The position numbers and the translations under genes are program-made. Of a stretch of DNA of 64,000 nucleotides, positions 9,357 to 56,345 are shown in pieces (position 1 is the stretch's first letter; every line of letters begins with the position of its first letter). Where the stretch lies: assembly GCA_049644265.1 (NCBI GenBank), contig JBARRO010000139.1:5462-69461 (forward strand), in the 5' to 3' direction. The stretch comes from Bacteroidota bacterium. Lineage in GTDB: Bacteria > Bacteroidota > Ignavibacteria > UBA10030. A model generated the notes under the pieces. The model had not been told where the DNA came from. It was given only the letters and a program-made list of their open reading frames with translations, and made no database searches.

Positions 9357-11992
9357 TAGCCAAGGCTCCGTGCGACGTTCACGACCAGTGAAAAATACGA
9401 CCCTAACGCGTATGTCGAATCATAGTAGAAGAACAGGGCACCCAGCAGCACGGCGCTTACAAGGACACCCCCCACATACACCTTTGCCGAGCTTAAGTCG
9501 TAGATAACGGAGACACCTTTGAGAATCCTGGAGAACGCCCAGAGCAAAAACACGAAGATCAGGACAAGAGAGGGAATGATGTAGAGTGGATTCTCCATGA
9601 CCTTGAACAGACTCATCGCCACGGGGCTGAGGAATATCAGCGGCATTGCACCCCAGACCGAGACGGTATAGGAATGATACCAGGAGATTTTTTTTCGAAT
9701 GAATACGGAACAAACCTTCACCAGCATTGCCAGAAGGCCAAACCCCACGAAGAAACACCCGGTAAAGGCCATAATTCCCGCCAGCGGATGCCAGGTTGCC
9801 CTGATAAACTGCTCCTTGAGCGAATCCCAAACGATGAAGTAGGTGAGCACATAGTCCGCAAACCTGTCCGCACGGTAATGATAGAGGATGCTCGACAGTA
9901 CGACCGCAAGCGTAATGGAAATTGAAAGAGCAAGCAGGAGTGTTTGAAACATCGACACGGAGTGATGGTCGCGAAGGTCGGCGAAGAAATTGTATGAACG
10001 CAGAAACGCACGCTTGATCGCCTCACCGAACCGGCGGTTGTAGGTGTACTGATACCCGACCAGAATGATCACAAACAGACCCGAGAGCACATGCGCGACG
10101 GGAAAGCTCGACCGATACGTGCCGATGGGAATGGCGTTGATTTTTTCTTCCGAGTAGAGCGCCCTGACCATTTCATACGATAACCTCTTTGCACGGTCAT
10201 AGCTCATCAGACCGACCGGGTGAACGTAGTGGTCTTCGATATTCACGTTCATGATCGGCCGGTCGCCTCGCCAGTCCGCGAACGACGATACAAAGCTGCC
10301 GGCGATCTTCAAATCCCTGATCGCGCCGTATTGCTGAAAGAAAAATCGTGCCTGAGCTTCCTGTGAGAGCGGGTCGCTGTATCCATTCCGGTTATTCTGG
10401 TCGACTTCCTTTCCATAGCTGAGCACAATCACCGGCTGGTTCGCGTGATCTTTTTTCCATTCGGACAAGAGCCGGCGAAAATTCTTCAGGTCGGCGGAAG
10501 GAAGGTTGATCGCAGCAAAGTCGACTTCCTTGGCGCACACATCGTTATAGACCATCCGTGAACCAAAATAGACGGGGCGTGCGTCGAGAGACCGCGCCAC
10601 GGCTGCAGCCTGCCGTACAAACGCGGCCGCGCGTTCATCCGCGGAGTCGAACTGGTCCCCGATTCCCCAGGCGAGCACAGCGGGGTTTTCCAGGTCGCGT
10701 TCAATCATTTCGCGTAGATAGGTGTCGGTGAGACTCTGGAAGGATTCGTCGGAGAGGATGTCGACCGGAGCGTTCCAGACGGGAACCTCTTCGAGTGCAA
10801 ACAATCCGTAGCGGGCGCAAAGGTCAATCATGTACGGATGCGGGGGATGGAACGCAAACCGCACTGCGTTGGCGCCGAGCGACTTCATCAGCACCACGTC
10901 TTTATCCATCTGTTCGTAGGTCAGGGAAGCTCCGACGCCCGGGTGGTCTTCGTGCCAGACAATGCCTTTCAGGGTCGCGGCAACACCGTTGACCTCGAAG
11001 GATTTGGCCCCGACGACCACATGGGAGAATCCGATGAGCCGGTCCATTTCATCGATGGCCAACTTTTGTTTACCCTCAACAGAGAAGATCGTCGCCCGGA
11101 GGAAATAGAGCTCGGGAGTTTCGGGACTCCACAGTCTCGGCTCGTTCATTGTCAACGAAGTCTCAACGTTGTGCTCCTTGTTCCGTTCGAGCGAGAGAGC
11201 GACCGGAAGCGATTGGGCAACGACGGCCTGCGACATCTTGTCTACCAATTCCAGACCCACCATATAGCTGACGTTCACAGGGCGGTTGTCCGAAGAGTCT
11301 TTCTTGAGTCCCTGGAACCCTCTGTTACTGATAACAGCGGATACGCGGATCGTGCCTACCTTCAGGTCCGTACTGACGGTGGGGAGTGCATGGAGCTCCG
11401 AGATCCATAATCGCGGCGTCACAAGAATGTACACATCGCGCAGAATCCCGCCGTAGTTTCTCCAACCCCAGACTTGTTTCCGCAACGGCAGCGTTGATCG
11501 TCCGTTGAGTCGATTGTCGACGACGATCTGAATGGAATTCTCCGGTCCAAGCTGCAACGCTTCGTCCGGGATATCGAACTCCGTTGTCGTGTATCCCCCG
11601 ACATGCTTCCCGATGAAGACATCGTTGACAAAAACTTCGCACTCATAGTTGATTCCGAACGCAACCAGACGAAACACGTGCGACTGAAGGAGCGATTCGT
11701 CCATCGTGAACTTCCGACGGAAGGTTACTTTTCCTTCAAAGTCGAGCGAGCTCGGGACCTTGAGTTCGCTCCATGTCTCTTTGTCCGTTGAGAATGTCCA
11801 GGTTCCGGCGAGGTCGATTTTCTCTCGCAGCGGTGTGTCGGGATAGATGCCGGCGTCCTGGCCCCTGAGCGTCGGCTGGCCATTTTCCAGAATCCGTTGT
11901 TGTGCAAAAACCGGGGTAATTAGAAATAATGCGGAGACAAGTGGAAGAAAAAGGCTGAAAATACGGGGGAAAATGTGAGGTTTTCTTGTCAA
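9356..11992 (-). CDS. Glycoside hydrolase family 2-like periplasmic domain fused to a C-terminal polytopic (about 8 TM) membrane domain
   Basis: 904-aa ORF. Probable TTG start at 11992 gives a signal peptide MTRKPHIFPRIFSLFLPLVSALFLITPVFA-QQ. GH2 sugar-binding and TIM-barrel regions are recognisable, followed by eight hydrophobic helices. Stop overlaps the smc start. Confidence 0.65.
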   Translation of the reverse strand: MTRKPHIFPRIFSLFLPLVSALFLITPVFAQQRILENGQPTLRGQDAGIYPDTPLREKIDLAGTWTFSTDKETWSELKVPSSLDFEGKVTFRRKFTMDESLLQSHVFRLVAFGINYECEVFVNDVFIGKHVGGYTTTEFDIPDEALQLGPENSIQIVVDNRLNGRSTLPLRKQVWGWRNYGGILRDVYILVTPRLWISELHALPTVSTDLKVGTIRVSAVISNRGFQGLKKDSSDNRPVNVSYMVGLELVDKMSQAVVAQSLPVALSLERNKEHNVETSLTMNEPRLWSPETPELYFLRATIFSVEGKQKLAIDEMDRLIGFSHVVVGAKSFEVNGVAATLKGIVWHEDHPGVGASLTYEQMDKDVVLMKSLGANAVRFAFHPPHPYMIDLCARYGLFALEEVPVWNAPVDILSDESFQSLTDTYLREMIERDLENPAVLAWGIGDQFDSADERAAAFVRQAAAVARSLDARPVYFGSRMVYNDVCAKEVDFAAINLPSADLKNFRRLLSEWKKDHANQPVIVLSYGKEVDQNNRNGYSDPLSQEAQARFFFQQYGAIRDLKIAGSFVSSFADWRGDRPIMNVNIEDHYVHPVGLMSYDRAKRLSYEMVRALYSEEKINAIPIGTYRSSFPVAHVLSGLFVIILVGYQYTYNRRFGEAIKRAFLRSYNFFADLRDHHSVSMFQTLLLALSISITLAVVLSSILYHYRADRFADYVLTYFIVWDSLKEQFIRATWHPLAGIMAFTGCFFVGFGLLAMLVKVCSVFIRKKISWYHSYTVSVWGAMPLIFLSPVAMSLFKVMENPLYIIPSLVLIFVFLLWAFSRILKGVSVIYDLSSAKVYVGGVLVSAVLLGALFFYYDSTYALGSYFSLVVNVARSLG

Positions 11993-12078
11993 TTCAGTTG
12001 AAGCAGGATGTGCGCCAAGAAGCTGTCGGAAAACCCGACAATACGCAGAATGACTCTGAATATAATACAAAAAGGAGG

Positions 12079-19189: not shown

Positions 19190-22069
19190 TTAGGGTGTTG
19201 AGTCCCGACCCTTATCGCTGACGTTCCCTTCATCTTTCAATGCATGTAGAATCGCATCGTGAATTCTGGGGCGAGCGCGTGCTATTCTGCCGAAGTTGCG
19301 ACTCGGATAAACACGATTCGTGAGGAGGACAATAATCACGTTCTTTTCCGGGTCCGCGACGACAGAAGTTCCTGTGAATCCCGTATGAAGAAACGTCTTC
19401 ATCGACGTGAGCGTTCCGGAGAACGATCGCCCGGAAGTCTTCGTATCCCATCCAATTGCCCTGCTGTCCTTTTCCGACTGACGCTCGATGAACCTGGAAA
19501 TAGTCTCTTTGCTGATGTAGCGCTTTCCTCCGTAGGTGCCGCCGTTGAGAAGCATTTGCATGAAGATCGCAAGGTCCGAGGTTGTCGAAAACAGACCCGC
19601 ATGGCCCGACACTCCTCCGAGCGTCGCCGCATTCTCGTCATGCACGCGGCCACGCACAGCCACTCCCGTGTGGCGCCAATACGTATCAACCTCCGTCGGG
19701 GCGATTCGGTCGATGAGGCGCTGCGGAGGATTGTACGTCGTGCTCCTCATCCCGAGCGGCTTGAAGAACAAAGAGTCCACGTACTTGTCCAGTCCGACGC
19801 CGGTGATTCTTTCTATCACCTTTCCTGTCGTAATTAATCCGAGGTCACTATACAAGGTCGAATCACCTGTTTTGTAGATCAGTCCTGTGGCAAAGACCGA
19901 GTCGACAACGCACTGGGAATCCTGACAGAAATCGTAGAATCGCCTCCATGCCGGCAGTCCGCTGTTGTGAACCATCAGGTTGTAGAGCGTGATGTTCTCT
20001 TTTCCGTTTTGTCCAAACCGCGGGAGATACTGCACAACCCGGTCTTCCAGTCTCAACTTCCCTTCGTCTACAAGCCTCATTACTGCGCTTGTTGTTGCGA
20101 TGACTTTTGTGACTGACGCGAGGTCGTAGATGGTGTTGACGTCAACACGCTTTGAATAGAGCCCGTACTCGTAGCCGCCGAATGCTTTGTTGTAGACTAT
20201 GACCCCATTCCTCGCGGCGAGGAGGACACCGCCCGGGAAGGCCGAATCTTGTATCGATGATTCTACGACATCGTCAACCTTTTGAAGTTCGGCTCTGTCG
20301 AATCCAACTTCCTCCGGCGCTCCAGTTCTCATCGTTGTTTTTGGATACTCAATGCCGTCGCCGAAATTGTAGACTCCCGGTACGGTGATCGGCAGTTTCC
20401 CCACCGCAGGAGATTCTGCAAACAGCACTTCCGCGGCGGCCTGCTCCATGACGTCCGCATCGGAGTACGTGCACACATACGCGTCGACCTGCGGAAACTC
20501 CATGACTACGTATGGATTTCCGAACGAGACAGCAACGACAGGTTTTTTCAAAGCGAGGAGATTCTGCATCAACGCCGCCAGCTTGGGATCGACGAACCCG
20601 GTCATTTCACCGGAGCGGGTGTAGAGATGAAGCTGACAAAGCAGGATATCGGCGGTCTTTGCTTTCACGAGGAGCGAATCGTACTCCATCCGGTTGCTTC
20701 GGGGATCAATCGTCGCACGGCCAACCCTCCCACGCCGGGCCTGAAGAAGCCGATGGAACCCGTCGCCGGCAGAGGGATCCTCCGTGTCGGAAATAATGAC
20801 GTCGAGGATTTTCGTCGTGTCCGTCTTCGGAAGAGGCAGAATGCCGCTCTTGTTTCCCAGGACCGTCACCGCTTTGCGCGCGATTTCCGTCGCGAGCAAC
20901 TGATGCGGCCGCGTGCCAACCTGCTCGTAGATTTTGGCAACATCAACGTATCGATTAGCATCCAAACCCATTCGCTGTTTGATCTTCAGCAGTTTCCGGA
21001 CCGAACCGTTGATCCGCTCTTCAGTTATTTCTCCGTTCTTCACTGCAGCGACGATGGCATCGACGGCGAGGTCGGGGTCTACAGGCATGAGAACCAGGTC
21101 GACTCCGGCCTTGATAGCGAGGACCGCCGCCTCGCCCGGCGCATATTTTTTCGCCACACCGGCCATTTGCATGGCATCAGTGACCACAAGTCCGTCGAAC
21201 TTCAATTCGTCTTTGAGGAGCTTCGTCGTGATGTTCGGCGAGACCGTTGCTGGAACGCCTGGAACTGAATCGTAGACGGGAACTGCGAGATGACCGATCA
21301 TCACGGAGAGAGCTCCCGCGTTGAATGACTGGACGTATGGGGGAAGGTCACGTTTCTCCAACACGTCTTTGCCAAAGTTCAGAATGGAAAGACCAAGATG
21401 AGTGTCAACGTCCGTGTCCCCGTGTCCGGGGAAATGCTTCACGGTGGCGATCATGCCGCCGTCCTGGGTCCCTTTCACGAATGCGGCTCCCATTTCGGAA
21501 ACCAGTTTCACCTCATCGCCAAACGCCCGAGTGTTGATGACGGGATTCTTCGGGTTGACGTTCACGTCGATATCGGGTGCGTAGTTCTGATGAACTCCGA
21601 GCGCTCGTCCCTCGATTGCCGTGACCTTGCCGACTTCGTAGGCATAGCCAGGATTTCTCGTCGCTCCGATCGCCATCGCCCGCGGAAACGTCGTCGAGCC
21701 ATGGACGCGCATCCCGACACCGTATTCAAAATCTCCTGCAATGAGCAGCGGAACATCGGCGTGTTCCTGGAGCTTGTTGATTTGCACGGCGTATTCGTAC
21801 ACATCTCCGATAGAGAAGATGAATCCTCCGAGTTTCCTCTCCTGAGTGAGGCGTTCAAGCTCTTGCCACCGGTCCGAGTCCTTCGGATAGTATTTCCCGA
21901 GCGTCCAGACAAAAACCAGCTGGGAGACTTTTTGTTCAAGCGGAAGACGCTGAAGGGTTGATTCAACCCAGTCGGGACCCACTGAGACGGTGGTTTGTGG
22001 GGGTATGGATGTGGAACAGCCGAGTCCAAGGAGGATAACGAAAACGAAAATTGTGAGTGATTTGGTCAT
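19190..22069 (-). CDS. nagZ: Bifunctional beta-N-acetylhexosaminidase (GH3, NagZ-like) fused to a beta-lactamase-fold serine hydrolase; lipoprotein
   Basis: 959 aa. Lipoprotein signal with LGC lipobox. N-terminal GH3 motifs KHFPGHG and Asp nucleophile region GLVVTDAMQMAGV. C-terminal domain carries an SxxK motif (SVTK) and beta-lactamase-fold features. Confidence 0.85.
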   Translation of the reverse strand: MTKSLTIFVFVILLGLGCSTSIPPQTTVSVGPDWVESTLQRLPLEQKVSQLVFVWTLGKYYPKDSDRWQELERLTQERKLGGFIFSIGDVYEYAVQINKLQEHADVPLLIAGDFEYGVGMRVHGSTTFPRAMAIGATRNPGYAYEVGKVTAIEGRALGVHQNYAPDIDVNVNPKNPVINTRAFGDEVKLVSEMGAAFVKGTQDGGMIATVKHFPGHGDTDVDTHLGLSILNFGKDVLEKRDLPPYVQSFNAGALSVMIGHLAVPVYDSVPGVPATVSPNITTKLLKDELKFDGLVVTDAMQMAGVAKKYAPGEAAVLAIKAGVDLVLMPVDPDLAVDAIVAAVKNGEITEERINGSVRKLLKIKQRMGLDANRYVDVAKIYEQVGTRPHQLLATEIARKAVTVLGNKSGILPLPKTDTTKILDVIISDTEDPSAGDGFHRLLQARRGRVGRATIDPRSNRMEYDSLLVKAKTADILLCQLHLYTRSGEMTGFVDPKLAALMQNLLALKKPVVAVSFGNPYVVMEFPQVDAYVCTYSDADVMEQAAAEVLFAESPAVGKLPITVPGVYNFGDGIEYPKTTMRTGAPEEVGFDRAELQKVDDVVESSIQDSAFPGGVLLAARNGVIVYNKAFGGYEYGLYSKRVDVNTIYDLASVTKVIATTSAVMRLVDEGKLRLEDRVVQYLPRFGQNGKENITLYNLMVHNSGLPAWRRFYDFCQDSQCVVDSVFATGLIYKTGDSTLYSDLGLITTGKVIERITGVGLDKYVDSLFFKPLGMRSTTYNPPQRLIDRIAPTEVDTYWRHTGVAVRGRVHDENAATLGGVSGHAGLFSTTSDLAIFMQMLLNGGTYGGKRYISKETISRFIERQSEKDSRAIGWDTKTSGRSFSGTLTSMKTFLHTGFTGTSVVADPEKNVIIVLLTNRVYPSRNFGRIARARPRIHDAILHALKDEGNVSDKGRDSTP

Positions 22070-25103: not shown

Positions 25104-25172
25104 GGGAGTTTCTAGTTTCTAGTTTCTGGTTTCTGGTTTAGAGTTTAGAGTTTAGAGTTTCTAGTTTCTGCG
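25104..25172. repeat. GAGTTTC/TAGTTTC heptamer array
   Basis: Sequence gagtttctagtttctagtttctggtttctggtttagagtttagagtttagagtttctagtttctg. Confidence 0.7.
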
Positions 25173-30097: not shown

Positions 30098-31879
30098 ATG
30101 TCTAGACTTCTCGCAACCTGTCTGGCCTTCGCACTCGTCCTGCCGGCCCGCGTGTGCTATGCACAGAGCTTAGCCAGTGCGAAACAATTGGGCGTTGTCA
30201 CCTTCCTTTCCACCGACAAGATCCGGGCGGGAGAAACAACGCGGATCGCCGTTCAGCTGACGATCAACGAAGGCTGGCACGTCAACTCGCATCGTCCCAC
30301 ATTCGATTACCTGATCCGGACCGACCTGACTTTTAATCAGAACGCAGGGTATCTTGTCGCAGATATCCAGTATCCAGCGGGAAAGACCGAGAAGCTCGCG
30401 TTTGCTGACGAACCTCTCGATGTCTACCAGGGAACTGTCACCGTTGTCGCATCACTCCGGTTTTCCGACCTGATCGCTGTTGGCCCCGACACCATCCGGG
30501 GAGCCGTCCAGGTCCAGGCCTGCAACGACCAGGTGTGCCTCGCACCGTCCGCAATCCCGATTGTAATCCCCGTTGAAGTTGTTTCCGCCAGCGAATCCGT
30601 CCATGCGAACCATCCCGAGATTTTCAGTGCTGCCGGAACTGGTGAAGCGAAGCAATCATCCGGCGGGGGGAATGAACTCGCGGCCATGTTTGAAGAGCGG
30701 GGATCGTTCGTAACGTTTCTTGCAATTTTCCTGATCGGACTCGCCCTCAACCTCACGCCGTGCGTGTATCCCATGCTGTCTGTGACCGTTTCCCTGTTCG
30801 GTACACAAACGGAAGCGCGCATGCTGCGCGTGTTTCTCAAAGCGGTCGTCTACGTGCTCGGCATTGCAACGATGTACAGCGTGCTCGGAGTAACAGCAGC
30901 ACTTGGCGGTGGACTATTCGGCAGCTGGCTTCAGAGTCCATGGGTGCTCGGCGGAATCGCCGTTCTGCTTTTTGGCCTTGCTCTCAGCTCCTTCGGTCTC
31001 TATCAGATTCAGATGCCTTATTGGCTCACGAGCCGCCTCGGCGGAACGACAGGGACCGGGGTTATCGGTTTGTATCTCTCGGGACTCGTCGTCGGCGTCT
31101 TTGCAGCTCCGTGTGTCGGTCCGCCCGTCATTGCCCTGCTCACGCTTGTCGGCACAAAGGGAGATCCGTTCTTCGGCTTCTGGTCGTTCTTTACCCTCTC
31201 CCTCGGGCTCGGCTTTCCCTATCTGATCCTCGGGACATTTTCGGGGCTTCTCAAGAAAATTCCCCGTTCGGGCGCATGGCTTGTGTGGGTTGAGAGGATC
31301 TTTGGCGTTATTCTTACGGGAGCCGCGTTATTCTATCTCGCTCTCGCTGTTGCACCTTCGTACGCATCGTATGTCATTCCGCTCATCCTTATTGTCGGCG
31401 GCATCTATCTTGGATTCGTTGACCGGTCCGGCAAGGACAAGAAAGTGCTTCAGCGTATCCAGTGGCTCTTCGGCGTTGCCTGCGTGGTCGTCGGAGTTAT
31501 TTTTGCAAACGGACTCCGCAAACCGGGAATATCCTGGGAGTCATACTCCGATGAAAAACTTATGGCCGCGAAGGCACAGCAAACGCCGGTGGTGATGGAT
31601 TTCTATGCCGACTGGTGCATTCCTTGTCTGGAGCTTGACCGGAGCACGTTCACGGATCCTTCCGTCGTCAGTGCCACGAAGAATTTTCGCCGGCTCAAGG
31701 TCGACCTGACCCACTTTGATTCTGCGGACGCCGAGGCATTGCGAAAGAAGTTCGGTATTTCCGGAGTCCCGACGGTGATATTTCTGAATGTCGGCGGCGA
31801 GGAAGTGACCTCATCGCGCATCATTGGATACGTTACTCCGGAGGTGTTTGTGGAGAAGGTGGGGGGAGCAGGTAAGTAG
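30098..31879 (+). CDS. dsbD: Thiol:disulfide interchange protein DsbD
   Basis: 593 aa. N-terminal periplasmic domain, central TM domain with CVYPML, and C-terminal thioredoxin WCIPC. Confidence 0.85.
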   Translation: MSRLLATCLAFALVLPARVCYAQSLASAKQLGVVTFLSTDKIRAGETTRIAVQLTINEGWHVNSHRPTFDYLIRTDLTFNQNAGYLVADIQYPAGKTEKLAFADEPLDVYQGTVTVVASLRFSDLIAVGPDTIRGAVQVQACNDQVCLAPSAIPIVIPVEVVSASESVHANHPEIFSAAGTGEAKQSSGGGNELAAMFEERGSFVTFLAIFLIGLALNLTPCVYPMLSVTVSLFGTQTEARMLRVFLKAVVYVLGIATMYSVLGVTAALGGGLFGSWLQSPWVLGGIAVLLFGLALSSFGLYQIQMPYWLTSRLGGTTGTGVIGLYLSGLVVGVFAAPCVGPPVIALLTLVGTKGDPFFGFWSFFTLSLGLGFPYLILGTFSGLLKKIPRSGAWLVWVERIFGVILTGAALFYLALAVAPSYASYVIPLILIVGGIYLGFVDRSGKDKKVLQRIQWLFGVACVVVGVIFANGLRKPGISWESYSDEKLMAAKAQQTPVVMDFYADWCIPCLELDRSTFTDPSVVSATKNFRRLKVDLTHFDSADAEALRKKFGISGVPTVIFLNVGGEEVTSSRIIGYVTPEVFVEKVGGAGK

Positions 31880-36751: not shown

Positions 36752-36900
36752 AGGAAGGTAGATGTGAGATGTGTGATTTGAGTTTCGAGTTTGAAGTTTG
36801 GAGTTTGAAGTTCAAGGTTTAAAGGTGTTGCCAGTTTACCAGTCTCCAGTAACCAGTTCACGGTTCACTATTCACGATTCACTATTCACCACTCATTGCT
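36752..36900. repeat. Composite intergenic element (GAGATGT)n-(GAGTTTN)n-AAGTTCAAGGTTTAAAGGTG-core-(TTCACTA)n
   Basis: Shares an approximately 60-nt core with 56241-56300, and shares architecture with 41312-41511 and inverted 49015-49140. Confidence 0.75.
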
Positions 36901-41311: not shown

Positions 41312-41511
41312 GATGGGAGAGGTGAGATGTAAGATGTGGGATGTAAGAAGTGAGATGTGAGTTTCGAGTTTTCGGTTCTGAGTTTAGAGTTCAAAGTTCA
41401 GGTTACACTCTACCTATCACTTTTCGCTTTTCATTTTTCACTGTTCACTGTTTGCTTTTCACCTTTCACTTTTCGCTTTTCACTGTTTACAGTTCACCAT
41501 CCGCGAGCATC
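41312..41511. repeat. Composite intergenic element (GAGATGT)n-(GAGTTT)n-AGTTCAAAGTTCAGGTT-(TTTTCAC)n
   Basis: Same architecture as 36752-36900. Occupies the spurious 5' extension of ORF 41357-42127. Confidence 0.75.
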
Positions 41512-42127
41512 CGTGAGTAGCCGCTTCCGACATATCGCTCTCCTTCTCAGCTTCCTCGCAATTTTCATCTGGTCCGTGATCTATCCCAAGGATCTTTTCA
41601 CCTGGTTTCTCGAAGTTTTCCCGGCAATCATCGGACTCTGGGTCCTTCTTGCCACGTATAAACGATTCCCGTTGTCGGATCTGGTGTACGGATTAATCTG
41701 GATTCACGCAATCATTCTTGTTATCGGCGGACACTACACGTATGCCGAGATGCCGTTGTTCAGCTGGATCAGAGACACGTTTCATCAGTCGCGAAATTAC
41801 TATGACAGAGTGGGGCACTTCGCGCAGGGGTTTATCCCGGCGATGATTGCGCGCGAGGTGCTCTTACGAACAACCTCTCTGAAACGCAGCAAAATGCTGA
41901 CGTTCATTATTGTCTCAATTTGTCTCGCAATCAGCGCCGTTTATGAACTGATCGAATGGGGAGTTGCGGAGGCGACCGGTTCAGCTGCCGACGCTTTTTT
42001 GGGAAGTCAGGGAGATGTGTGGGACACGCAGTGGGATATGTTTACGGCGTTGTGTGGGGCGATGATTTCCGTTGGGACACTCTCCCGGGCGCATGATCGC
42101 TCGATGTCGAGGTTGCCTTCCGAATGA
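41512..42127 (+). CDS. DUF2238 family inner-membrane protein
   Basis: Likely GTG start at 41512. Four to five TM helices. The upstream ORF extension reads as repeat-encoded nonsense. Confidence 0.6.
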
Positions 42128-42250: not shown

Positions 42251-42286
42251 AAAAAAAAGCGTGGGAAGAAAAATCTCTTCCCACGC
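42251..42286 (-). terminator. Rho-independent terminator of the multihaem cytochrome gene
   Basis: On the minus strand: gcgtgggaagagatttttcttcccacgc followed by TTTTTTTT. Confidence 0.8.
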
Positions 42287-42315
42287 CCGGAGGATACAAG
42301 AAGACAGCCTGGCGG

Positions 42316-45249
42316 CTATTTAATCAGGACCATCTTCCTGGTTGAAACGAAGTCACCTGCCTGCAAGCGGTAGACATACACGCCGCTGCTGACTGCCTGG
42401 CCCGCATTGTTCGTGCCATGCCAGGTCACTCCATGGTTGCCCGCGGACATCGTGGTATTCACGAGTGTCGTTACGAGTTCACCGGAGACGGAGTAAATCG
42501 AAAGCTTCACAAAGGATTCGGTCGGAAGAGCAAACCGGATCTGTGTGCTTGGGTTGAACGGGTTGGGATAATTCTGACCCAGCGCATACACGGTGGGAAT
42601 CCCGTTCTCATCTTCGACGTTGGTCGTCTTGAGACCGACTTCGATCGAGAAAGCACCCATGTTGCCGGCGTTGTCCATGCCCACAACCTTGTAGTAGTAC
42701 ATCGTTCCCGGCAGCACGTTGACATCGCGACCCTGAACGGCCTTGTCAACCGTCAACACAGGCGTCAAGCCGGTCGGGTCAAAGTTCTGGCTGGTGCTGC
42801 GATACACGAGATACTGCACGACGTCGTTGTCGCGAGTCGTCGGAGCGTCCCACTTCAGGTCGACGCCCTGCGGGGTTGCATTCACCGTCACGCCCGTCGG
42901 GGCAAGCGGCGTGAGGTTATTCAACGAGTAACCGCTGTCAATCGGAGAGCTGTAAACCACAGTTGGGTCGTCCGTGTACCCGCAAACGAAGAAGGCCGTG
43001 TACTTCATGCCTGCTACTTTTGTGGAATCAAAGATTGTCGGTGCGACGGTGGAGTACTGGGTGAAGTTCATCGGATAGACATCCCCGACAAACGTCCACA
43101 CAGATCCGCCCAGCGCATACTGACTGCCGACCACGGAAGACTTCAGCATTTCCGTAAACGAACCCGCCTTCTTGTACGCAATGCCTGCTGACGGGAGAAT
43201 CGGATCCTGTCTCCAGATCCCGTATGCTGTCAACCGGTTCACGCTGTAGGACTCCGCGGGGAACTTGTTCCATACAATCTGAACAGTCTTCCCGTTGTCG
43301 CCCGGGACATCCTTGATCTGGACAATGCTTGCCGCAGCCGCACCGAGCTGAAGCTGCTCGATGGAGGACGTCAGAAGACCCTTGGCATACAGATAATTGT
43401 GCACGCCAAAGCTTCCGTCGTTGTTCACGAACTGATAGTTGTACGCCGCAGCCTTTTCCGGAACCGTGAGCTTGCGCTTGCTTCCGGCGGGTGCATTCTT
43501 CCAGTTTTGATACACGATCGTGTCGCTTGGCAGAATTACTGCGCCGACTGAATCGCGTTTGGGGAGGGCGTTGAGCAGTGTGGCAAGGAGCGCCTTTGTC
43601 TTGGCTTGCGTAAAGTCGACAAATTCAATGCTCGTTCCTTCGCCATGGCATTCGGCACATCCCGTCGGATTGAGAACCGGGACGGAGTCGCCGGGTGCAG
43701 TGTAGGCAACCCGGAAGGTGTGACCACCAAGCTTATTCAACATCGTGTCTGGCTTGCTGAAGTTCGCAGCTTGGGAAGCCAGGAACGACGGCGAGTCGGC
43801 CATATGGCACGTCACGCATTTCTCGGCAATGTCGCTGTGCGAGGAATTCTCATACTTGTAGCCCGGCAACTCCCAGCCGCTCCATTTTCCAAGCGCTGCG
43901 GTAATCAGGTTGGGGTTCGCCATGTAGTTCTTCAACACATCGAGCGAGAACGCCGGAGCTTTTGTTCCATCGAGCATCGGACCCTGATGGGCCGCATGCA
44001 ATCCACGGCTGCTGATGCGCGTCTCGTGGCAACCGACACAGACTTCTGCAATCGAGGCTGCACGGAGCTGGGCGGCATTCTTGTTGCTGTGCGGATCGTG
44101 GCACGTCGTGCAACCGACGGGCTCGGGATCCGGATAAACTTTGTTTCCACTCGCGACGACCGGCTCGGGTTCGCCGTTGATCGTCTGTCCGATGTATCCT
44201 TGTGCCGTATGACACTTGGCGCAAATTGGACGGTCGGTGTATTCCACCTGTGCGCCTTCCGCCATAGAAACGGCGTGCAAGGAGCCTGACCAGGCGTAGC
44301 CTTTGCCATGACGGTCACTGGAGAAGTGACATGGTGCGCAAACGTCGGAAGACAGAGAGCGATCCAACTTCGTGTTGTCGGGAGTCGGGAAACCTGAAGA
44401 CGTGTGCTGCGATGCAGGACCGTGGCAGTTTTCGCACTGAATGCTCGTGAGTCCCATCATGGTCCTCAACCCAATATTTGAACCTGCTGCCGTCACCAAT
44501 GAATCAAAGACCCCGGGGTGCTGGGGAGTAACGACTTTGAAACTCAACGACGTTGCATATTCGGTGTAGCCATCGTTGGGCGCTCCGGTGACTGTGGATT
44601 TATATGCACCAGCGGAGTGACAGGACATGCAGTTGTTCGAGAAATGTCCGCCGGCCGGTTCGGGCTGGTCAAGGTCGGTCAGTGCATCGAACCGTCGCTT
44701 GACGGCCTTTGCGTGCTTCGTCTTCTGCCAGTCGGTGAACTTGCCCGGACTCGTGAAGTGACATGCGCACCCGGAGGGCACAGTGTTGGCAGCCAGACTG
44801 ATGCCGGCGCCGACAAACTTTGAAGCAATAACTTTGATGGAAACGGAAGGCGTCGTTCCTGACGCAGTCGTCGCCGTCATGCCGACGGTGTACTCACCGG
44901 CAACATCCGGAATAAAATATACGATGGTTCCGTTGAGACCCGTCGCGGTGTCCTGGATCGTTGCAGTGGTTCCACCAGGCCCGGTCAGCGTCCATGCTGC
45001 GCTGGTAACCGACAGGAGTGTTTCGTTATATTTTGTGGCGGTACCAGAATACACCTTTGGTGCCAGCACAACGCGGTTGCCAATGCCCACAGTTTTGAGA
45101 CCGTAGGTTGATTCGTTCTTGTTGGCCGCTTTGAACCGGTCGGGAACGCCCACAACCATGATCTTGCCTGTTTGGGCGAACGCTCCGACTGGGAGCGCTA
45201 TGGAAAGCGCAAGGACAACAATGGAACAGATGAGTAAGAATCTCCTCAT
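42316..45249 (-). CDS. Secreted multihaem c-type cytochrome (at least 8 CxxCH) with FN3 domain and T9SS C-terminal sorting domain
   Basis: Start ATG at 45249 with RBS aaggagga and signal peptide MRRFLLICSIVVLALSIALPVGAFAQ. The ORF track extends 53 codons further upstream. CxxCH motifs: CMSCH, CENCH, CAPCH, CAKCH, CTTCH, CVGCH, CVTCH, CAECH. C-terminus YPNPFNPSTQIRF...VYVYRLQAGDFVSTRKMVLIK matches a Por/T9SS CTD. Confidence 0.85.
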   Translation of the reverse strand: MRRFLLICSIVVLALSIALPVGAFAQTGKIMVVGVPDRFKAANKNESTYGLKTVGIGNRVVLAPKVYSGTATKYNETLLSVTSAAWTLTGPGGTTATIQDTATGLNGTIVYFIPDVAGEYTVGMTATTASGTTPSVSIKVIASKFVGAGISLAANTVPSGCACHFTSPGKFTDWQKTKHAKAVKRRFDALTDLDQPEPAGGHFSNNCMSCHSAGAYKSTVTGAPNDGYTEYATSLSFKVVTPQHPGVFDSLVTAAGSNIGLRTMMGLTSIQCENCHGPASQHTSSGFPTPDNTKLDRSLSSDVCAPCHFSSDRHGKGYAWSGSLHAVSMAEGAQVEYTDRPICAKCHTAQGYIGQTINGEPEPVVASGNKVYPDPEPVGCTTCHDPHSNKNAAQLRAASIAEVCVGCHETRISSRGLHAAHQGPMLDGTKAPAFSLDVLKNYMANPNLITAALGKWSGWELPGYKYENSSHSDIAEKCVTCHMADSPSFLASQAANFSKPDTMLNKLGGHTFRVAYTAPGDSVPVLNPTGCAECHGEGTSIEFVDFTQAKTKALLATLLNALPKRDSVGAVILPSDTIVYQNWKNAPAGSKRKLTVPEKAAAYNYQFVNNDGSFGVHNYLYAKGLLTSSIEQLQLGAAAASIVQIKDVPGDNGKTVQIVWNKFPAESYSVNRLTAYGIWRQDPILPSAGIAYKKAGSFTEMLKSSVVGSQYALGGSVWTFVGDVYPMNFTQYSTVAPTIFDSTKVAGMKYTAFFVCGYTDDPTVVYSSPIDSGYSLNNLTPLAPTGVTVNATPQGVDLKWDAPTTRDNDVVQYLVYRSTSQNFDPTGLTPVLTVDKAVQGRDVNVLPGTMYYYKVVGMDNAGNMGAFSIEVGLKTTNVEDENGIPTVYALGQNYPNPFNPSTQIRFALPTESFVKLSIYSVSGELVTTLVNTTMSAGNHGVTWHGTNNAGQAVSSGVYVYRLQAGDFVSTRKMVLIK

Positions 45250-45648
45250 AAATCCTCCTTCGCGGAATAATTTGAGAGATCGTTCAATGGAGTTTGGGGA
45301 CATGAAAGACGATTTGTTGGTAGGTTGGTGATCGATCCCCAGGATGTCTTCAACAGAAATTTTCGTTGCGTCTGTTACAATTCCCCGGGAATCACCACTA
45401 TCCGTCAACTTTTATACCACTGTTCTTTCAAAGTAAGAGGATGTAGAGCCCTCAAAAGCGGAACAAAATCGACGACCGTACAGGTGATCATCTTCTCAAT
45501 TATTAGAATTGCGGAAATCAACAAATCCAACTTCTCTATTCTCATAAACGAGTCTTAAGAATCGTTATTCCATTGTCGGCTGTCTGAATGAGGAGCGGAA
45601 CGTTGAAAGCAAGCAATGCGTTGTGGGAACCAACCAAAGGAACGTACG

Positions 45649-46077
45649 ATGCGGTTGTGGAGTCTCCATCCGTCCTATCTCGACGCCAAAGGCCTGGTCG
45701 CCGTCTGGCGTGAGGCGCTTCTTGCGAGAGCAGTGTTGCGCGGGGCGACGAAAGGGTACAAGCACCATGCACAACTCGAGCGGTTCAGGAAATGCCGACG
45801 ACCTCTTGCCGCAATCAACAGCTATCTTAGCGGAATTAATGACGAGGCACTTCGAAGAGGATACAAATTTGACAGCAGGAAGCTTGGACCCCCGTCACGA
45901 GGCCCAGTGCTTACGGTGACACGAGGACAGCTTCGGTATGAGCTGGAACATCTGAAGAAAAAACTTCGAACGAGAGACACGCAGCGGTACAACAAGTTGG
46001 CAACCCTGAAGAGAGTTCATCCACATCCCCTCTTTCGGGTCATTGCGGGAACAGTTGAATCCTGGGAAAGACTTTGA
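45649..46077 (+). CDS. Pyrimidine-dimer DNA glycosylase (T4 endonuclease V-like) family protein
   Basis: ATG at 45649. N-terminus MRLWSLHPSYLDAKGLVAVWREALLA resembles the Pyr_excise family N-terminus. Confidence 0.6.
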   Translation: MRLWSLHPSYLDAKGLVAVWREALLARAVLRGATKGYKHHAQLERFRKCRRPLAAINSYLSGINDEALRRGYKFDSRKLGPPSRGPVLTVTRGQLRYELEHLKKKLRTRDTQRYNKLATLKRVHPHPLFRVIAGTVESWERL

Positions 46078-47956: not shown

Positions 47957-48985
47957 CTACTGCGATTCCAACGCCTTCCGGTAAGCGTCTCTGAGTTTTA
48001 TTGCGGCGTTCTTCCACGAAAACTCGTTCTTGAATTTCTCCCGGAGTCCGGTCCCTCGGTCTTTTTCCAGAGCCCGGACGATTCCGCCGCGAATGTCCTC
48101 GACGTAATTCGGATCCACGTATTCTGCATCTGAGCCAAAGTAATCCCGCGTTCCGCCGTTGGGCGTAATCACAATGTTGGCCCCGGCAAGTCCCGCCTCG
48201 AGTGCGGCGATACCGGGAGTTTCAAAGATGGAGGGAAGCGCAAACACTTTGGCCGCAGCGTATGCCGAAGCGAGAAGCGGTGAATCATGAGGAATGCTTT
48301 CGAGAACCGTCAGACGGGGATTTCGCTTTGCCTGTTCCATGCATGCACGGCCTGCCTCCGATTGCTCAATTCTGCCTATGATGACGGCGGGAATTTCTAC
48401 AGACTCCAGCGCTCGCAGGAGTCGGAAGACATTTTTGCGTGCAGGACCCACATGTCCGACATTCAGAACAAAATTCTCGGTCCCGTACTTCTTCTTAAAA
48501 AGACCGGGCTTTGCACTGTAGAATCTTTTCTCTATACCAACCGGCACAACGGTGAGGGATTCCTTTGAAACTCCGAAGCCGTTGGAAAACAGCGTCGCCT
48601 CTGCCTGCGTCGTGGGGAACACCGCCTTCGCCCATTGACATATCTCTGCCATGATGCCATAGTCGGTCCAGAAACCTGGAAGGAACTTTCTCAACGACCT
48701 GTCTCCCGCAATCGCCATCCGTACGAAAGCGCCCGAATGGCGCGTGTAGAAGATCGGGGTCACAACGGTGGGAACGCCGTTGAGCTTCAGCATGCGAGCC
48801 AGGTGGTATGTCCCGATGCCAGCACTAAAGATGTGCACAAGGTCAAATTCGCCCTTCTTAAATTCCTGCCAGGAATCAAACAAGGCGACCTTCACGCCGA
48901 GATTCTCCAGCTCCACTTTTGTCTGGAGGATCTGAGTGCGGGGGCCTCCCTTCAGCATCATGATAGATTGATAAGAGGCGAGGCA
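47957..48985 (-). CDS. Family-4 (GT-B) glycosyltransferase
   Basis: True ATG at 48985 (MNICLASYQ). The 151-codon upstream part of ORF 47957-49438 runs into repeat DNA. C-terminal motifs EGLP/ETPGIAALEA are absent in classic form, but the GT4 fold is recognisable. Confidence 0.7.
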   Translation of the reverse strand, partial: CLASYQSIMMLKGGPRTQILQTKVELENLGVKVALFDSWQEFKKGEFDLVHIFSAGIGTYHLARMLKLNGVPTVVTPIFYTRHSGAFVRMAIAGDRSLRKFLPGFWTDYGIMAEICQWAKAVFPTTQAEATLFSNGFGVSKESLTVVPVGIEKRFYSAKPGLFKKKYGTENFVLNVGHVGPARKNVFRLLRALESVEIPAVIIGRIEQSEAGRACMEQAKRNPRLTVLESIPHDSPLLASAYAAAKVFALPSIFETPGIAALEAGLAGANIVITPNGGTRDYFGSDAEYVDPNYVEDIRGGIVRALEKDRGTGLREKFKNEFSWKNAAIKLRDAYRKALESQ

Positions 48986-49014
48986 GATGTTCATGGGGAG
49001 GTAGCGGTTAGCAG

Positions 49015-49140
49015 GTGAATCATGAGTGAAAAGTGAAAGGTGAATAGTTAGAGCGTATATCGCACTTTGAACATTGAACTTTAAACTCGAAACTTCAAAC
49101 TCTAAACTCCAAACTATCTCCCACCTTACCCTCGCCCCAA
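49015..49140. repeat. Composite element in inverted orientation: (GTGAA)n...(AAACTC)n
   Basis: gtgaaaagtgaaaggtgaatag...gaactttaaactcgaaacttcaaactctaaactccaaact is the reverse complement of the 36752/56187 architecture. Confidence 0.7.
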
Positions 49141-50700
49141 CCGCCTCCTCCCCAATCTCATCATTCCCGAAACGGCATCCACCGTTTTCGTCAACGGTAT
49201 CCGGTAGTTGAACTTCCGGATTCGAGCGTAGTCGTCGGGGAACTGGACCGTCATCGGGTCTTTTTTCCAAAACAGTGAATCGAGGTGAATTTCCTTTCGC
49301 ATCGGCGAAAATGCTTCCGTACCGTCCGCTTTGGAGATGCGCAGCCAAACAGACTCCTTCGGCGGATCGCCTCCCGGAATGAGGATGGACCCTTTCAACG
49401 TCATTGTTGATCCGATGCTGCTCCGCTCCTTCCACCATGAAGCGTACGTGTGCATTGGGACAAGCGAAATACGCGCCTGTTTTATTGCGGCGAACAGATG
49501 TTCCAGAACTGCCGGATGTCCGTCTTTTGGATGATGATAGAAAATCATCGGGTCCCGCATGGCAAGCTTTTGCGCAACCACAAAGTCAAAATAGCTCTTC
49601 ATCTGTTCTTCAAAGTATCCCTGTCGCCGCAGGCTTCCGATGCAGATTGGGTGGACCGGAACCTGAAGGGACTTTGACCATTCACCGTGAAGAAGCGGGA
49701 AAGAAGGGAAATTGTCATGATCGTACGAGAACTCCGAAGAATACTCAAAGCCCGCCATGAGAATCGCCCTGCCGAGGTCGTTGTTCCAGACTCCGAGTGG
49801 CGCAGCAAATCCCTTCGCCGTCAACCCTTCGCGCTCAAATATCTTCATTGCCTGCCGGATGTTCTTCTCGTTCCCCCCGTAATCGTCAAACACCTTGTGC
49901 TCGAAGCAATGAATGCCGATTTCCTGCGACTCCATGCGCTTAAACATCGAAAGGAACAGCTGCTGACTCCCGACGTCGACAAACCAGGTGGCCGGAATGC
50001 CGTGCTTTGTGGTAAGCTGAAAGAGCTCATCGATTTCCGAGGGGCTCCCGTAATCGGTGTCGATGCGGAATGCGAACACCGACCGCGCTTCGCCCGGGAA
50101 ATACCAGCGGTGGGCATATGGCAATCCCCTCCGGTGATGAAGAACCTCCAGCGAACGCGAAACCAGCCTTCGCAGACTTCCTTTCGAGACATTCGAAACA
50201 CGTTCGAACGGCAGGCGGGGCTCAGGCGAGTAGAACGATTTCGTTGCAGCGGCGGTGTCCATCACCAGCCGGGCTGGGTCGAACGGCAGCGCCATGATGG
50301 TGCCGGGCTCGTGGGCGCCGATGTGACCCGAATAATCTCCGCTGTCGGTGCGAAGCTCGTTGGCGTTCCAGGCAAGCTGACACCGCTCACGAACATCGAT
50401 GAGTCCTATTCCTGAAAACAATGATTCACGGTCGGGTAGAATGTAATGAATGTATTCGCGTTCGTACGTCGATTGCCGGATTCGCGCGTACACTTTCGAT
50501 GAACACAAAACAGCGCCGCCGAGCGCCAGGAACTGGCGCAGCATTTCCGATTCCCGGTCGTCGACATCATCGCCCGCGACAAGAACGCTGTAGTTCTCCG
50601 CAGTCAGCGCCTCCTTGACGCGGTCGTACGGAACTCCCTCCTGTTGCAGCAGGAGTTCCCAGCCGCGGGGATCGCCGAGTATACCAACGCGAATATTCAT
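49126..50700 (-). CDS. Polysaccharide deacetylase (NodB-homology) family protein
   Basis: 524 aa. Central NodB-like region FRIDTDYG...HCFEH. Confidence 0.6.
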   Translation of the reverse strand: MNIRVGILGDPRGWELLLQQEGVPYDRVKEALTAENYSVLVAGDDVDDRESEMLRQFLALGGAVLCSSKVYARIRQSTYEREYIHYILPDRESLFSGIGLIDVRERCQLAWNANELRTDSGDYSGHIGAHEPGTIMALPFDPARLVMDTAAATKSFYSPEPRLPFERVSNVSKGSLRRLVSRSLEVLHHRRGLPYAHRWYFPGEARSVFAFRIDTDYGSPSEIDELFQLTTKHGIPATWFVDVGSQQLFLSMFKRMESQEIGIHCFEHKVFDDYGGNEKNIRQAMKIFEREGLTAKGFAAPLGVWNNDLGRAILMAGFEYSSEFSYDHDNFPSFPLLHGEWSKSLQVPVHPICIGSLRRQGYFEEQMKSYFDFVVAQKLAMRDPMIFYHHPKDGHPAVLEHLFAAIKQARISLVPMHTYASWWKERSSIGSTMTLKGSILIPGGDPPKESVWLRISKADGTEAFSPMRKEIHLDSLFWKKDPMTVQFPDDYARIRKFNYRIPLTKTVDAVSGMMRLGRRRLGRG

Positions 50701-53119: not shown

Positions 53120-53611
53120 TTATTCATCGACATTGACTTCAAACCTGACAACTTCAAACCCCTTGAGTGTATCGAGCACGCCAAAGACGACGCCGAAAAA
53201 CATCGTCACCATGCCTGTCAGGAACGAAGCGATGATGAAGTACCGGATGGGGAGCACGTTCACAAAGAAGTCGAGGCCGATTAACAACGAAGTGACTACA
53301 AAGAGACCGACGGCAAGAAAATAGCAGAACAAGGAGTTCCGCACAAGCCGTGCCCGGGAGAGGAGGCGTCCGATCTGCTTCGTGATACTTTCCAAACGCT
53401 GATTGTCGGCCGTTTGCAGCTCCTGTTTTCCGGCCTGATGGAGCAGCTTTCGTTTCTCTTCGTTGAGGATCCGAATCCGGTTGAGGATGGTGGAAAACTT
53501 GCTGCTGATGCCGAGGAGGAGAAGTCCGCACGCGCTGATCATGACTGCAGGAGCCAGAATCAGCTGGATAACCTGAATGACGGTGATATGATCGCTCAGT
53601 GATTGATTCAC
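53120..53611 (-). CDS. DUF2721 family membrane protein
   Basis: 163 aa, GTG start, three to four TM helices and a central amphipathic helix, as in DUF2721. Confidence 0.6.
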   Translation of the reverse strand: MNQSLSDHITVIQVIQLILAPAVMISACGLLLLGISSKFSTILNRIRILNEEKRKLLHQAGKQELQTADNQRLESITKQIGRLLSRARLVRNSLFCYFLAVGLFVVTSLLIGLDFFVNVLPIRYFIIASFLTGMVTMFFGVVFGVLDTLKGFEVVRFEVNVDE

Positions 53612-53614
53612 GAA

Positions 53615-53800
53615 TGTGTCAAATTAGGGAACACGAATGAACCGAATGCAACGAATCACACGAACGAGATATTAGTTTGTGAGTTTGTATGATTCGTGTC
53701 ATTCGCACGATTCGTGCAATTCGTGTTCCACGTATGGAACGAATGCCACAAATTAGACGAATAAGAAATTGGTTTGTGAGATTCGTGTTTCATCCTTCAA
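53615..53800. repeat. ACGAAT / ATTCGT word repeats forming a long imperfect hairpin
   Basis: Left arm ggaacacgaatgaaccgaatgcaacgaatcacacgaacg. Right arm gattcgtgtcattcgcacgattcgtgcaattcgtgttcc. Also tttgtgagtttgtatgattcgtg and ttggtttgtgagattcgtg. Confidence 0.7.
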
Positions 53801-56186: not shown

Positions 56187-56345
56187 GAAGAAGAGGTTTC
56201 GAGTTTGGAGTTTAAAGTTTCAAGTTCAAGGTTCAAAGATCAAGGTTTAAGGTGGTTCCCAGTTGCCAGATAACCGTTCACTGTTCACTTATCGCTTTTC
56301 ACTTTTCGCTTCTCACTATTCACTCTTCACTATTTACTTCTTCCT
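56187..56345. repeat. Composite element (GAGTTT)n-AAGTTCAAGGTTCAAAG-core-(TTCACT)n
   Basis: Core ggtttaaggtggttcccagttgccagataaccgttcactgttcac is nearly identical to 36826-36880. Confidence 0.75.

Follow-up and report, generated by a model that had tools for sequence, protein, structure and literature searches.

How do the outermost cytochromes of Ignavibacteria-type organisms reach the cell surface? Enrichments on anodes or with Fe(III) have repeatedly yielded these organisms (PMC7399161; PMC11495043), and many secreted multihaem cytochromes are predicted in Bacteroidota, no route being named for them (PMC11495043). We addressed this question with one gene, located in a stretch of 64,000 nucleotides from a Bacteroidota bacterium of the Ignavibacteria (positions 5,462 to 69,461 of the forward strand of contig JBARRO010000139.1, assembly GCA_049644265.1; this whole stretch is called the window in what follows). 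According to its sequence, the product of the gene is an exported multihaem c-type cytochrome which carries a type A tag of the type 9 secretion system (T9SS). Our preferred reading, which we hold with moderate confidence, is that this protein would be exported by the T9SS and displayed at the cell surface, where it would act as a terminal oxidoreductase for extracellular electron transfer. The homology of its haem domain to the cytochromes OcwA and OmhA strengthens the part of this reading which concerns extracellular electron transfer. The coordinates of the features are collected in Table 1.

Nine haem sites and their relation to OcwA and OmhA

A preliminary description of this locus had called the protein octahaem, with at least eight CxxCH motifs, and had noted an additional CACH near the N-terminus. 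The CACH motif is indeed present, and the CxxCH motifs are exactly eight (at amino acids, aa, 207, 272, 304, 343, 380, 404, 478 and 531). Eighteen of the 20 cysteines of the cytochrome fall inside these nine haem motifs, and the motif CxxCK is absent from the whole protein of 977 aa. In an alignment of 48 orthologues (36-61% identity) all eight CxxCH motifs are invariant, as are nine histidines (179, 282, 314, 325, 387, 418, 471, 510 and 617), Met483, and the two cysteines and the histidine of the CACH motif, which we call haem site 1. What varies at haem site 1 is the spacing, which is CX1CH in 18 orthologues, CX2CH in 23 and CX3CH in 7. In a neighbour-joining tree CX2CH is basal, CX1CH defines a derived clade which includes the window protein, and CX2CH appears again in two sub-clades. 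In the family profile, the CACH of the window protein aligns with the first CxxCH of OcwA. The conservation of the two cysteines and of the histidine across all spacings argues that haem site 1 binds haem in every one of its forms, and that the family is nonahaem. The eight canonical motifs therefore stand as first described and are conserved in orthologues, while the term octahaem has to be abandoned: the position of the CACH is an ordinary CxxCH in about half of the orthologues.

A CX1CH site within a multihaem cytochrome is also found in a tetrahaem cytochrome of Kuenenia stuttgartiensis, whose CKCH motif is summarised in PMC7096707 as functional and carrying covalent haem (Ferousi et al. 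2019, J Biol Chem 294:16953). The two cases differ in that the argument for the window protein is a comparative one. The occurrence of CX1CH, CX2CH and CX3CH at one orthologous site can be seen as a natural experiment on what cytochrome c maturation accepts, and we are aware of no other described variation of this kind.

The family profile was searched against all PDB sequences. The lowest E-value is that of OcwA (6I5B, E 3.6e-21), followed by those of OmhA, the undecahaem cytochrome of Carboxydothermus ferrireducens (6QVM, E 3.9e-17), of MtrA, which is a local match only (6R2Q chain A, E 3.4e-11), of the octahaem nitrite reductase ONR (8RV0, E 3.2e-8), of NrfA (2VR0 and 2J7A, E ~3e-6) and of MccA (4RKM, E 1.4e-4). 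OcwA is a nonahaem terminal reductase of the surface of Thermincola potens, composed of a globular haem domain and an NrfA-like three-helix bundle; its haems 2 and 5 are five-coordinate and its haem 9 is ligated by histidine and methionine (PMC6703420). The window protein and OcwA of T. potens JR have nine haem sites in the same order: the alignment pairs haem 1, haems 3-4 and haems 5-9, and haem 2 is left unaligned yet is present in both proteins. The motifs CENCHGP...H, CHDPH and CHMA are conserved, and the helix motif NDGSxGVHN of the family pairs with ADGSNGVHN in OcwA. In an AlphaFold model of the window protein the haem domain is mainly helical and ends in three long helices (541-561, 596-609 and 616-636), a predicted bundle of the NrfA type. 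As to the histidines of the pocket, His282 of OcwA corresponds to the invariant H314 and His380 to the invariant H418, the position of H281 being occupied by an arginine in the window protein. Over aa 160-410, matches were obtained with the Pfam families Paired_CXXCH_1, Cytochrome_C7 and C554, all above their cut-offs, and with MtrC-MtrF_II-IV. From these sequence comparisons we conclude that the haem domain has a common ancestry with OcwA and OmhA, both characterised as terminal reductases of the cell surface, within the NrfA-HAO-MccA superfamily, to which NrfA, ONR, MccA, cytochrome c554 and OcwA belong. The differences are nevertheless substantial. OcwA and OmhA belong to Gram-positive Firmicutes whereas the window protein comes from a diderm bacterium of the Fibrobacterota-Chlorobiota-Bacteroidota (FCB) group; the sequence identity is low; the first haem site of the window protein is CX1CH; and OcwA has none of the immunoglobulin-like (Ig-like), beta-sandwich, fibronectin type III (FN3) and sorting domains which flank the haem domain here.

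Membership of this superfamily would also suit a protein which is not a conduit to solids at all, namely an extracellular or surface-bound catalytic reductase of soluble nitrogen or sulfur compounds (nitrite, hydroxylamine, NO, sulfite or tetrathionate). OcwA itself, with its two five-coordinate haems, reduces nitrite and hydroxylamine in vitro, and the pocket histidines H314 and H418 are invariant in the family. However, the turnover of nitrite by OcwA is very slow (kcat 1 per min; PMC6703420), the window protein has no CxxCK motif, and the second histidine of the pocket, H381 in OcwA, is Ala419 in the window protein and a histidine in only 22 of its 48 relatives. Small soluble substrates, moreover, enter the periplasm, and neither an exterior sorting tag nor a stalk would be needed to reach them. 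Finally, the relatives have electron-transfer cytochromes as neighbours, not nrf or mcc accessory genes. We consider such a catalytic role unlikely.

These neighbours deserve a closer description (the orthologous loci are designated by L numbers). In L001, L003, L086 and L087 the gene next to the orthologue encodes another multihaem cytochrome with a T9SS tag, about 700-726 aa long, while in L088 the adjoining multihaem cytochrome has 521 aa and only a weak FlgD_ig match. The block downstream of the orthologue in L003 and L004 contains a fusion of a multihaem cytochrome with a cytochrome b, a multihaem cytochrome of 674 aa and a cytochrome b, to which L004 adds NapC/NirT and Rieske/cytochrome b genes; L088 contains ResB/CcsA, that is system II of cytochrome maturation, and further multihaem cytochromes. 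Judged from gene content, the cytochrome b and NapC-type modules would oxidise quinol, and the whole is the neighbourhood which would be expected for a respiratory electron-export pathway. The same device could in principle work in the reverse direction and take up electrons at the surface, with Fe(II), reduced humics, a cathode or a syntrophic partner as donor: multihaem chains are reversible, the sequence sets no direction, and the Rieske/cytochrome b and cytochrome b modules found near the gene in relatives could run either way. Against uptake, OcwA and OmhA, which are the only homologues characterised so far, belong to bacteria that reduce Fe(III) or respire with an anode, and it is on anodes and with Fe(III) that the Ignavibacteria-type organisms cited above were enriched. 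Electron uptake seems to us distinctly improbable.

Export signals and the proposed route to the surface

The list of open reading frames (ORFs) gives a minus-strand ORF 42316..45408, the frame staying open up to TTG 45408. The best start, as far as can be judged from the sequence, is ATG 45249, which is preceded by AAGGAGG and opens a Sec signal peptide; orthologues have the same start position and the same GGAGGATTT-ATG context. An identical protein is deposited in GenBank as MGB2868529.1, 'MAG: cytochrome c3 family protein [Bacteroidota bacterium]' (MAG, metagenome-assembled genome). Read directly, the sequence of the signal peptide contains no lipobox; the model places a helix at aa 2-17 of this region, and the family consensus is MKR...A..QTGKI. 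The model was built with AlphaFold2 from 48 homologues and has a mean confidence (pLDDT) of 83. It divides the remainder of the protein into the domains of Table 1. Two of them have no counterpart in Pfam, which has no family for the sandwich at aa 27-143 and gives no match and no known family for the one at aa 642-775. The FN3 domain proposed in the preliminary description is recovered as an FN3-like domain, in the following way: Pfam fn3 gives no match with the single window sequence, but the family profile matches solved FN3 domains (3mpc, E 7e-8; 1k85, E 9e-6; titin), a search of the full model with Foldseek matched FN3 tandems, and the modelled domain is a seven-strand sandwich.

Table 1. 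Positions in the window of the cytochrome gene, of its predicted domains and motifs, and of the adjoining features.
Feature	Position	Strand	Description or basis
Nonahaem cytochrome gene with T9SS sorting domain, 977 aa	42316..45249	-	start ATG 45249; stop codon 42316-42318
Sec signal peptide (signal peptidase I, SPI, type), aa 1-25	45175..45249	-	MRRFLLICSIVVLALSIALPVGAFA followed by Q; cleavage between AFA and Q; read from sequence
N-terminal Ig-like beta-sandwich, aa 27-143	44821..45171	-	AlphaFold strands, pLDDT ~90
OcwA-like nonahaem cytochrome c domain, aa 155-636	43342..44787	-	CACH and eight CxxCH; profile, Pfam, model
Contracted haem motif CACH, aa 161-164, haem site 1	44758..44769	-	C161, C163 and H164 invariant in 48 orthologues
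Beta-sandwich domain, aa 642-775	42925..43326	-	AlphaFold strands; conserved family-wide
FN3-like domain, aa 785-874	42628..42897	-	family profile, Foldseek, seven-strand sandwich in AlphaFold model
T9SS type A C-terminal sorting domain, aa 894-977	42319..42570	-	YPNPFNP, GVYVYRL and KMVLIK motifs; TIGR04183
Shine-Dalgarno sequence AAGGAGG	45254..45260	-	six bases before ATG 45249; sequence
Intrinsic terminator	42257..42288	-	14-bp stem, 4-nt loop, T-run, 28 nt past the stop codon; terminator scan
Candidate sigma-54 (-24/-12) element TGGTATAAAAGTTGAC	45404..45419	-	170 nt before ATG; locus comparison
Divergent intergenic region, 399 bp	45250..45648		between the cytochrome and glycosylase genes
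Pyrimidine-dimer DNA glycosylase gene (neighbour outside the system)	45649..46077	+	Pfam PF03013 Pyr_excise, E 2.9e-23

The C-terminal sorting domain (CTD) matches TIGR04183 over aa 894-974 of 977 with 35.2 bits for a cut-off of 23, which bears out the T9SS assignment of the preliminary description; its modelled strands lie within 902-975. It also resembles the CTDs of PorU, PorZ and T9SS-dependent peptidases in NCBIfam and, by profile, the PorU structure 6za2. Its subtype, QNYPNPFNPST..., terminates unrelated proteins, proteases and adhesin-like proteins among them, across FCB genomes (carriers are found in Ignavibacteria, Calditrichia, Marinimicrobia, Zixibacteria, KSB1, Gemmatimonadota and others); for the FCB superphylum in general the T9SS is reported in PMC11205867. 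One could object that the domain has merely the Ig-like fold of FlgD and no working signal, in which case the cytochrome would be a periplasmic carrier or store. The related Pfam model FlgD_ig does pass, with 41.7 bits for a cut-off of 27, and outscores Por_Secre_tail (PF18962), which stays slightly under its cut-off of 27 with 23.7 bits; no T9SS genes, furthermore, were seen within the window. We nevertheless regard a periplasmic location as very unlikely, in view of the TIGR04183 score, of the likeness to the CTDs of PorU, PorZ and the peptidases, of the position of the domain at the extreme C-terminus, where it ends in the usual K-x-x-L-I-K strand, of its occurrence at the end of proteases and adhesin-like proteins in many FCB genomes, and of the fact that the Prokaryotic Genome Annotation Pipeline (PGAP) labels orthologues 'T9SS type A sorting domain-containing protein'.

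For the surface-displayed oxidoreductase which we favour, the following route can be proposed. The apoprotein would cross the inner membrane through Sec and would receive its haems in the periplasm, probably from a system II (ResB/CcsA) such as the one encoded beside one orthologue. The T9SS translocon would then pass the folded holoprotein, and the sortase PorU would remove the CTD, the protein becoming tethered to the surface, or released. There, the FN3 and beta-sandwich domains could act as a stalk, and the chain of nine haems would serve as terminal oxidoreductase for insoluble or high-molecular-weight acceptors, as OcwA does on Thermincola; candidate acceptors are Fe(III) and Mn(IV) oxides, humics, electrodes and partner cells. 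Transcription of the gene would start from a sigma-54-type promoter about 170 nt upstream, driven by an enhancer-binding activator.

Two known systems may be compared with this route. The first is that of the T9SS type A cargo, of which the gingipains of Porphyromonas gingivalis and the enzymes secreted by Flavobacterium and Cytophaga are examples: the window protein shares with it a Sec signal together with a beta-sandwich CTD of about 80 aa which passes TIGR04183, and cleavage by PorU followed by surface attachment or release is expected in both. However, the known cargo consists of proteases, glycoside hydrolases, adhesins and metal- or haem-binding proteins, and nine covalent haems would be an unusual passenger. 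The second is that of MtrC, OmcA and MtrF of Shewanella, with which the window protein shares the proposed role of terminal reductase at the surface, the export of a folded, haem-loaded protein across the outer membrane, and a local match to Pfam MtrC-MtrF_II-IV (PF22113; 35.1 bits for a cut-off of 30, split into 3 stretches). Those proteins are decahaem lipoproteins, exported by type 2 secretion and docked on the porin-cytochrome MtrAB, whereas the window protein has nine haems, no lipobox, and a predicted fold of the NrfA/OcwA type and not the staggered cross; no MtrC or MtrF chain was present among the solved-structure matches of the family profile.

Several points weigh against our reading. 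As to the locus, the gene is isolated among housekeeping genes, with a DUF2238 membrane protein, a YdeI-like protein, the pyrimidine-dimer glycosylase, FolD and YmdB encoded around it. Among the scanned ORFs of the 64-kb window we found no T9SS component, no second cytochrome, no further ORF with two or more CxxCH, no porin-cytochrome or MtrA-like gene and no sigma-54 activator gene (nor did the window contain a second CTD protein). As to the haem domain, the match of the single sequence is weak (E 1.2e-3 with 6I5B, 8e-7 with 6QVM) and only the family profile is convincing, so that the assignment to OcwA depends on this profile. Foldseek, run with the full model against the PDB, returned matches of FN3 type only (insulin receptor, titin) and none for the haem domain, and a model of the haem domain by itself, from an alignment of 14 sequences, reached a pLDDT of 43.7, which gives no independent structural confirmation. 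To these must be added the replacement of His381 of OcwA by Ala419 and the Por_Secre_tail score, both reported above.

That the protein is a candidate for electron transfer at the surface had been put forward in the preliminary description. The homology to OcwA and OmhA and the cytochromes next to its relatives speak for it, the function itself being deduced from sequence; the Ignavibacteria-like origin is confirmed by the labels of the homologues. A broader proposition can be made, which we advance tentatively, as its chances seem to us somewhat below even: bacteria of the FCB group, the Ignavibacteria and their relatives, may place assembled multihaem cytochromes on their surface by means of the T9SS, in a manner distinct from the Mtr and porin-cytochrome (Pcc) systems, with an OcwA-type module which would be under sigma-54 and two-component control and whose haem site 1 would tolerate CX1CH, CX2CH and CX3CH. 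In the literature searched we found no work in which the T9SS is associated with extracellular electron transfer or with multihaem cytochromes. The sequence itself is already known, being in GenBank under a generic name, with orthologues labelled by PGAP as T9SS cargo. What appears to be undescribed in the literature searched is the link to OcwA, the size of the clade with its frequent T9SS tag, and the CX1/CX2/CX3 variation together with the sigma-54 element.

The upstream region and a candidate sigma-54 promoter

The long gap upstream of the gene had been presented in the preliminary description as partly AT-rich and as an untranslated leader of 400 bp which might carry regulatory RNA structure. 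The gap is confirmed, and so is its AT-rich patch, the GC content having its minimum of 0.30 at 45500-45549. It is not a one-sided leader, because the glycosylase gene begins at its far end on the opposite strand. As the upstream gene is thus divergent and the downstream gene convergent, the cytochrome gene is, on the evidence of gene order, a single-gene transcription unit. Scans for the sigma-70 consensus and for the Bacteroidetes -7 consensus (TAnnTTTG) found nothing upstream on the strand of the cytochrome gene, and BLAST among the orthologous upstream regions found only the Shine-Dalgarno region in common.

A candidate promoter emerged only from the comparison of the orthologous loci, the strict pattern TGG-N8-TTGC having no occurrence in the upstream region of the window. 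The common element is GG[CT]A[CT]-N5-TTG[ACT], which fits the sigma-54 consensus TGGCAC-N5-TTGCW, and 9 of the 11 orthologous loci carry it 66-186 nt before their start codon. Apart from the window, these are L001 (AGGCACAGATTTTGCG, 186 nt before ATG), L003 (CGGTACAATTATTGAA, 159 nt), L004 (CGGCACAAATATTGAA, 157 nt), L086 (GGGCACGATATTTGCG, 105 nt), L087 (CGGCATAAATATTGAG, 167 nt), L088 (TGGCATATATATTGCG, 66 nt), L089 (CGGCATAGGAATTGCG, 149 nt) and L091 (TGGCACAAGGCTTGCA, 71 nt). The element is absent upstream of the orthologues in L092 and L093, which are only 40% identical. In 3.5 Mb of fetched loci the pattern has a background frequency of 6.1e-5 per nt; of the 8 loci which played no part in its design, 6 have the element within 200 nt (P ~9e-11). 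The whole window contains the pattern three times, one occurrence being the site upstream of the cytochrome gene, and a weight matrix made from the other eight loci only ranks this site 13th of 127,970 positions. In addition, genes for a PAS histidine kinase, for a response regulator with Sigma54_activat and for a small HTH_8 protein lie directly upstream in L004/L005 and in L087, where this gene set is likely to be a dedicated regulatory module. The conserved set (L004/L005 3827-9325, L087 4507-9470) also includes a PDZ protein and an ORF of 64-66 aa.

The family thus resembles known RpoN/NtrC-type promoters both in its GG-N10-G(C/A) element and, in two lineages, in the PAS kinase and the Sigma54_activat regulator, and we think it very probable, from this comparison of loci, that the cytochrome family is transcribed by the sigma-54 RNA polymerase. 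The window differs from such promoters in its degenerate element (TGGTAT-N5-TTGA) and its lack of a nearby activator, and the nine upstream loci share no palindrome and no 8-mer, so that no common activator site was found. Here two points are to be added to those which count against our reading: the element of the window is the weakest of the set, with GGTAT for GGCAC and TTGA for TTGC (GA at -12), and its stand-alone significance is ~0.04 for a search of 400 nt. The degeneracy of the element and the absence of an activator gene nearby make the promoter call weaker for the window than for the family, and for this gene in particular we would put a sigma-54 promoter only slightly above an even chance. 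Transcription would then be predicted to start at about 45393-45395, which gives a 5' untranslated region (UTR) of ~145 nt.

Enhancer DNA, a sigma-54-type promoter and a UTR of this length would together account for the long upstream region without any structured leader RNA. That the 399 bp are instead transcribed as a long structured leader, a riboswitch or an attenuator controlling the cytochrome gene, is scarcely credible: long upstream gaps are a trait of the family (605 bp in L001, 675 bp in L004 and 1225 bp in L003) and a 12-bp stem is possible at 45330-45394, but Rfam gave nothing in the upstream region even at E up to 1, shuffled versions of the putative leader are just as stable when folded (z -0.47 for 331 nt and -0.51 for 152 nt), the orthologous upstream regions share only the Shine-Dalgarno sequence and the sigma-54-like element, and the region must also house the promoter of the divergent glycosylase gene. 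The claim of a 400-bp leader with regulatory structure is accordingly not supported. If the sigma-54 link holds, it hints at signals which might switch the pathway on.

Three further observations concern regulation. A near-perfect palindrome of 20 bp, AACGAGTCTTAAGAATCGTT, located at 45547-45566, precedes the sigma-54-like element by ~130 bp; it has no conserved counterpart in the other loci and may be a binding site for a regulator. In the region upstream of the orthologue in L092 and L093 (~2040-2298) a conserved TTAGTGAATTTTTTCACATTC motif adjoins the Shine-Dalgarno sequence on its upstream side, a sign that regulation may be arranged differently in this sub-clade. Elsewhere in the window, at 53715-53730 on the minus strand, TGGAACACGAATTGCA is a good sigma-54-like element (score 9.9 with the matrix of the cytochrome promoters), ~105 nt upstream of an ORF for a membrane protein of 163 aa (53120..53611, minus strand).

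Distribution of the family and other features of the window

We found about 85 full-length homologues with 36-61% identity, and those which are named come from MAGs of Ignavibacteriales, Ignavibacteria or Bacteroidota; the T9SS label quoted above is one which PGAP often gives to orthologues. A scan of metagenomes gave at least 5 loci at 39% identity or more, 4 of which had enough upstream sequence to be used. A full-length alignment against the genome collection returned, among the matches listed, almost exclusively the CTD (QNYPNPFN), together with one full-length relative of 30% identity.

According to a published survey the OcwA/OmhA clade is 'very poorly represented', two genera of Firmicutes providing 2 and 4 sequences. 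We made an exhaustive search of 1.84 billion representatives with a profile of the haem domain (aa 262-632), which gave 202 clusters (at 50% identity) for E <= 1e-30 and 1,550 for E <= 1e-10. Nine CxxCH motifs are present in 82 of the 130 closest representatives, and a local search with a hidden Markov model found the same T9SS CTD at the end of 59 of these 130. The clade is thus wider than described, almost half of its closest representatives having the T9SS tag. The remaining ones finish with other recurrent tails or a membrane helix, or stop where the haem domain ends. Seen in this way, the OcwA-type module looks like a general extracellular cassette which different lineages would have joined to their own surface-sorting device.

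The tails themselves may be described briefly. Two of them, '...R[FY][FY]RV[IL]xxP' and 'DYPxxxLRGPV...W..Y', recur in OcwA-like nonahaem proteins which have no T9SS CTD; the first set of bearers consists of P0126, P0144, P0155, P0162-P0164, P0168, P0175, P0181, P0186 and P0259, and the second of P0122, P0130, P0134, P0153, P0165, P0166 and P0182. These recurrent tails may be other signals for surface sorting or anchoring. In P0191 and P0226 the C-terminus is a membrane helix followed by basic residues.

Finally we must note some features of the window which are not part of the cytochrome locus. A full-length DsbD (DsbD_N, DsbD_TM and thioredoxin domains) is encoded at 30098-31879 on the plus strand, 10 kb from the cytochrome gene; it would bring reductant into the periplasm, where cytochrome c maturation could make use of it. 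Two unusual fusions are encoded on the minus strand: at 19190-22069 a protein of 959 aa, in which a glycoside hydrolase of family 3 (N- and C-terminal domains) is joined to a beta-lactamase domain, and at 9356-12070 a protein of 904 aa which resembles glycoside hydrolases of family 2 (GH2) and has a Yip1-like membrane tail. The window also contains dispersed repeats of 40-140 bp with 67-81% identity, made of units such as GAGTTTCGAGTTTTCGGTTCTGAGTTTAGAGTTCAAAGTTCAG, every copy of which lies between genes (41340-41500, 36760-36819, 56196-56333, 49027-49109 on the opposite strand, and 25114-25159). These repeats inflate mechanical ORF calls, as in the N-terminal extensions of the ORFs 41357..42127 and 47957..49438.

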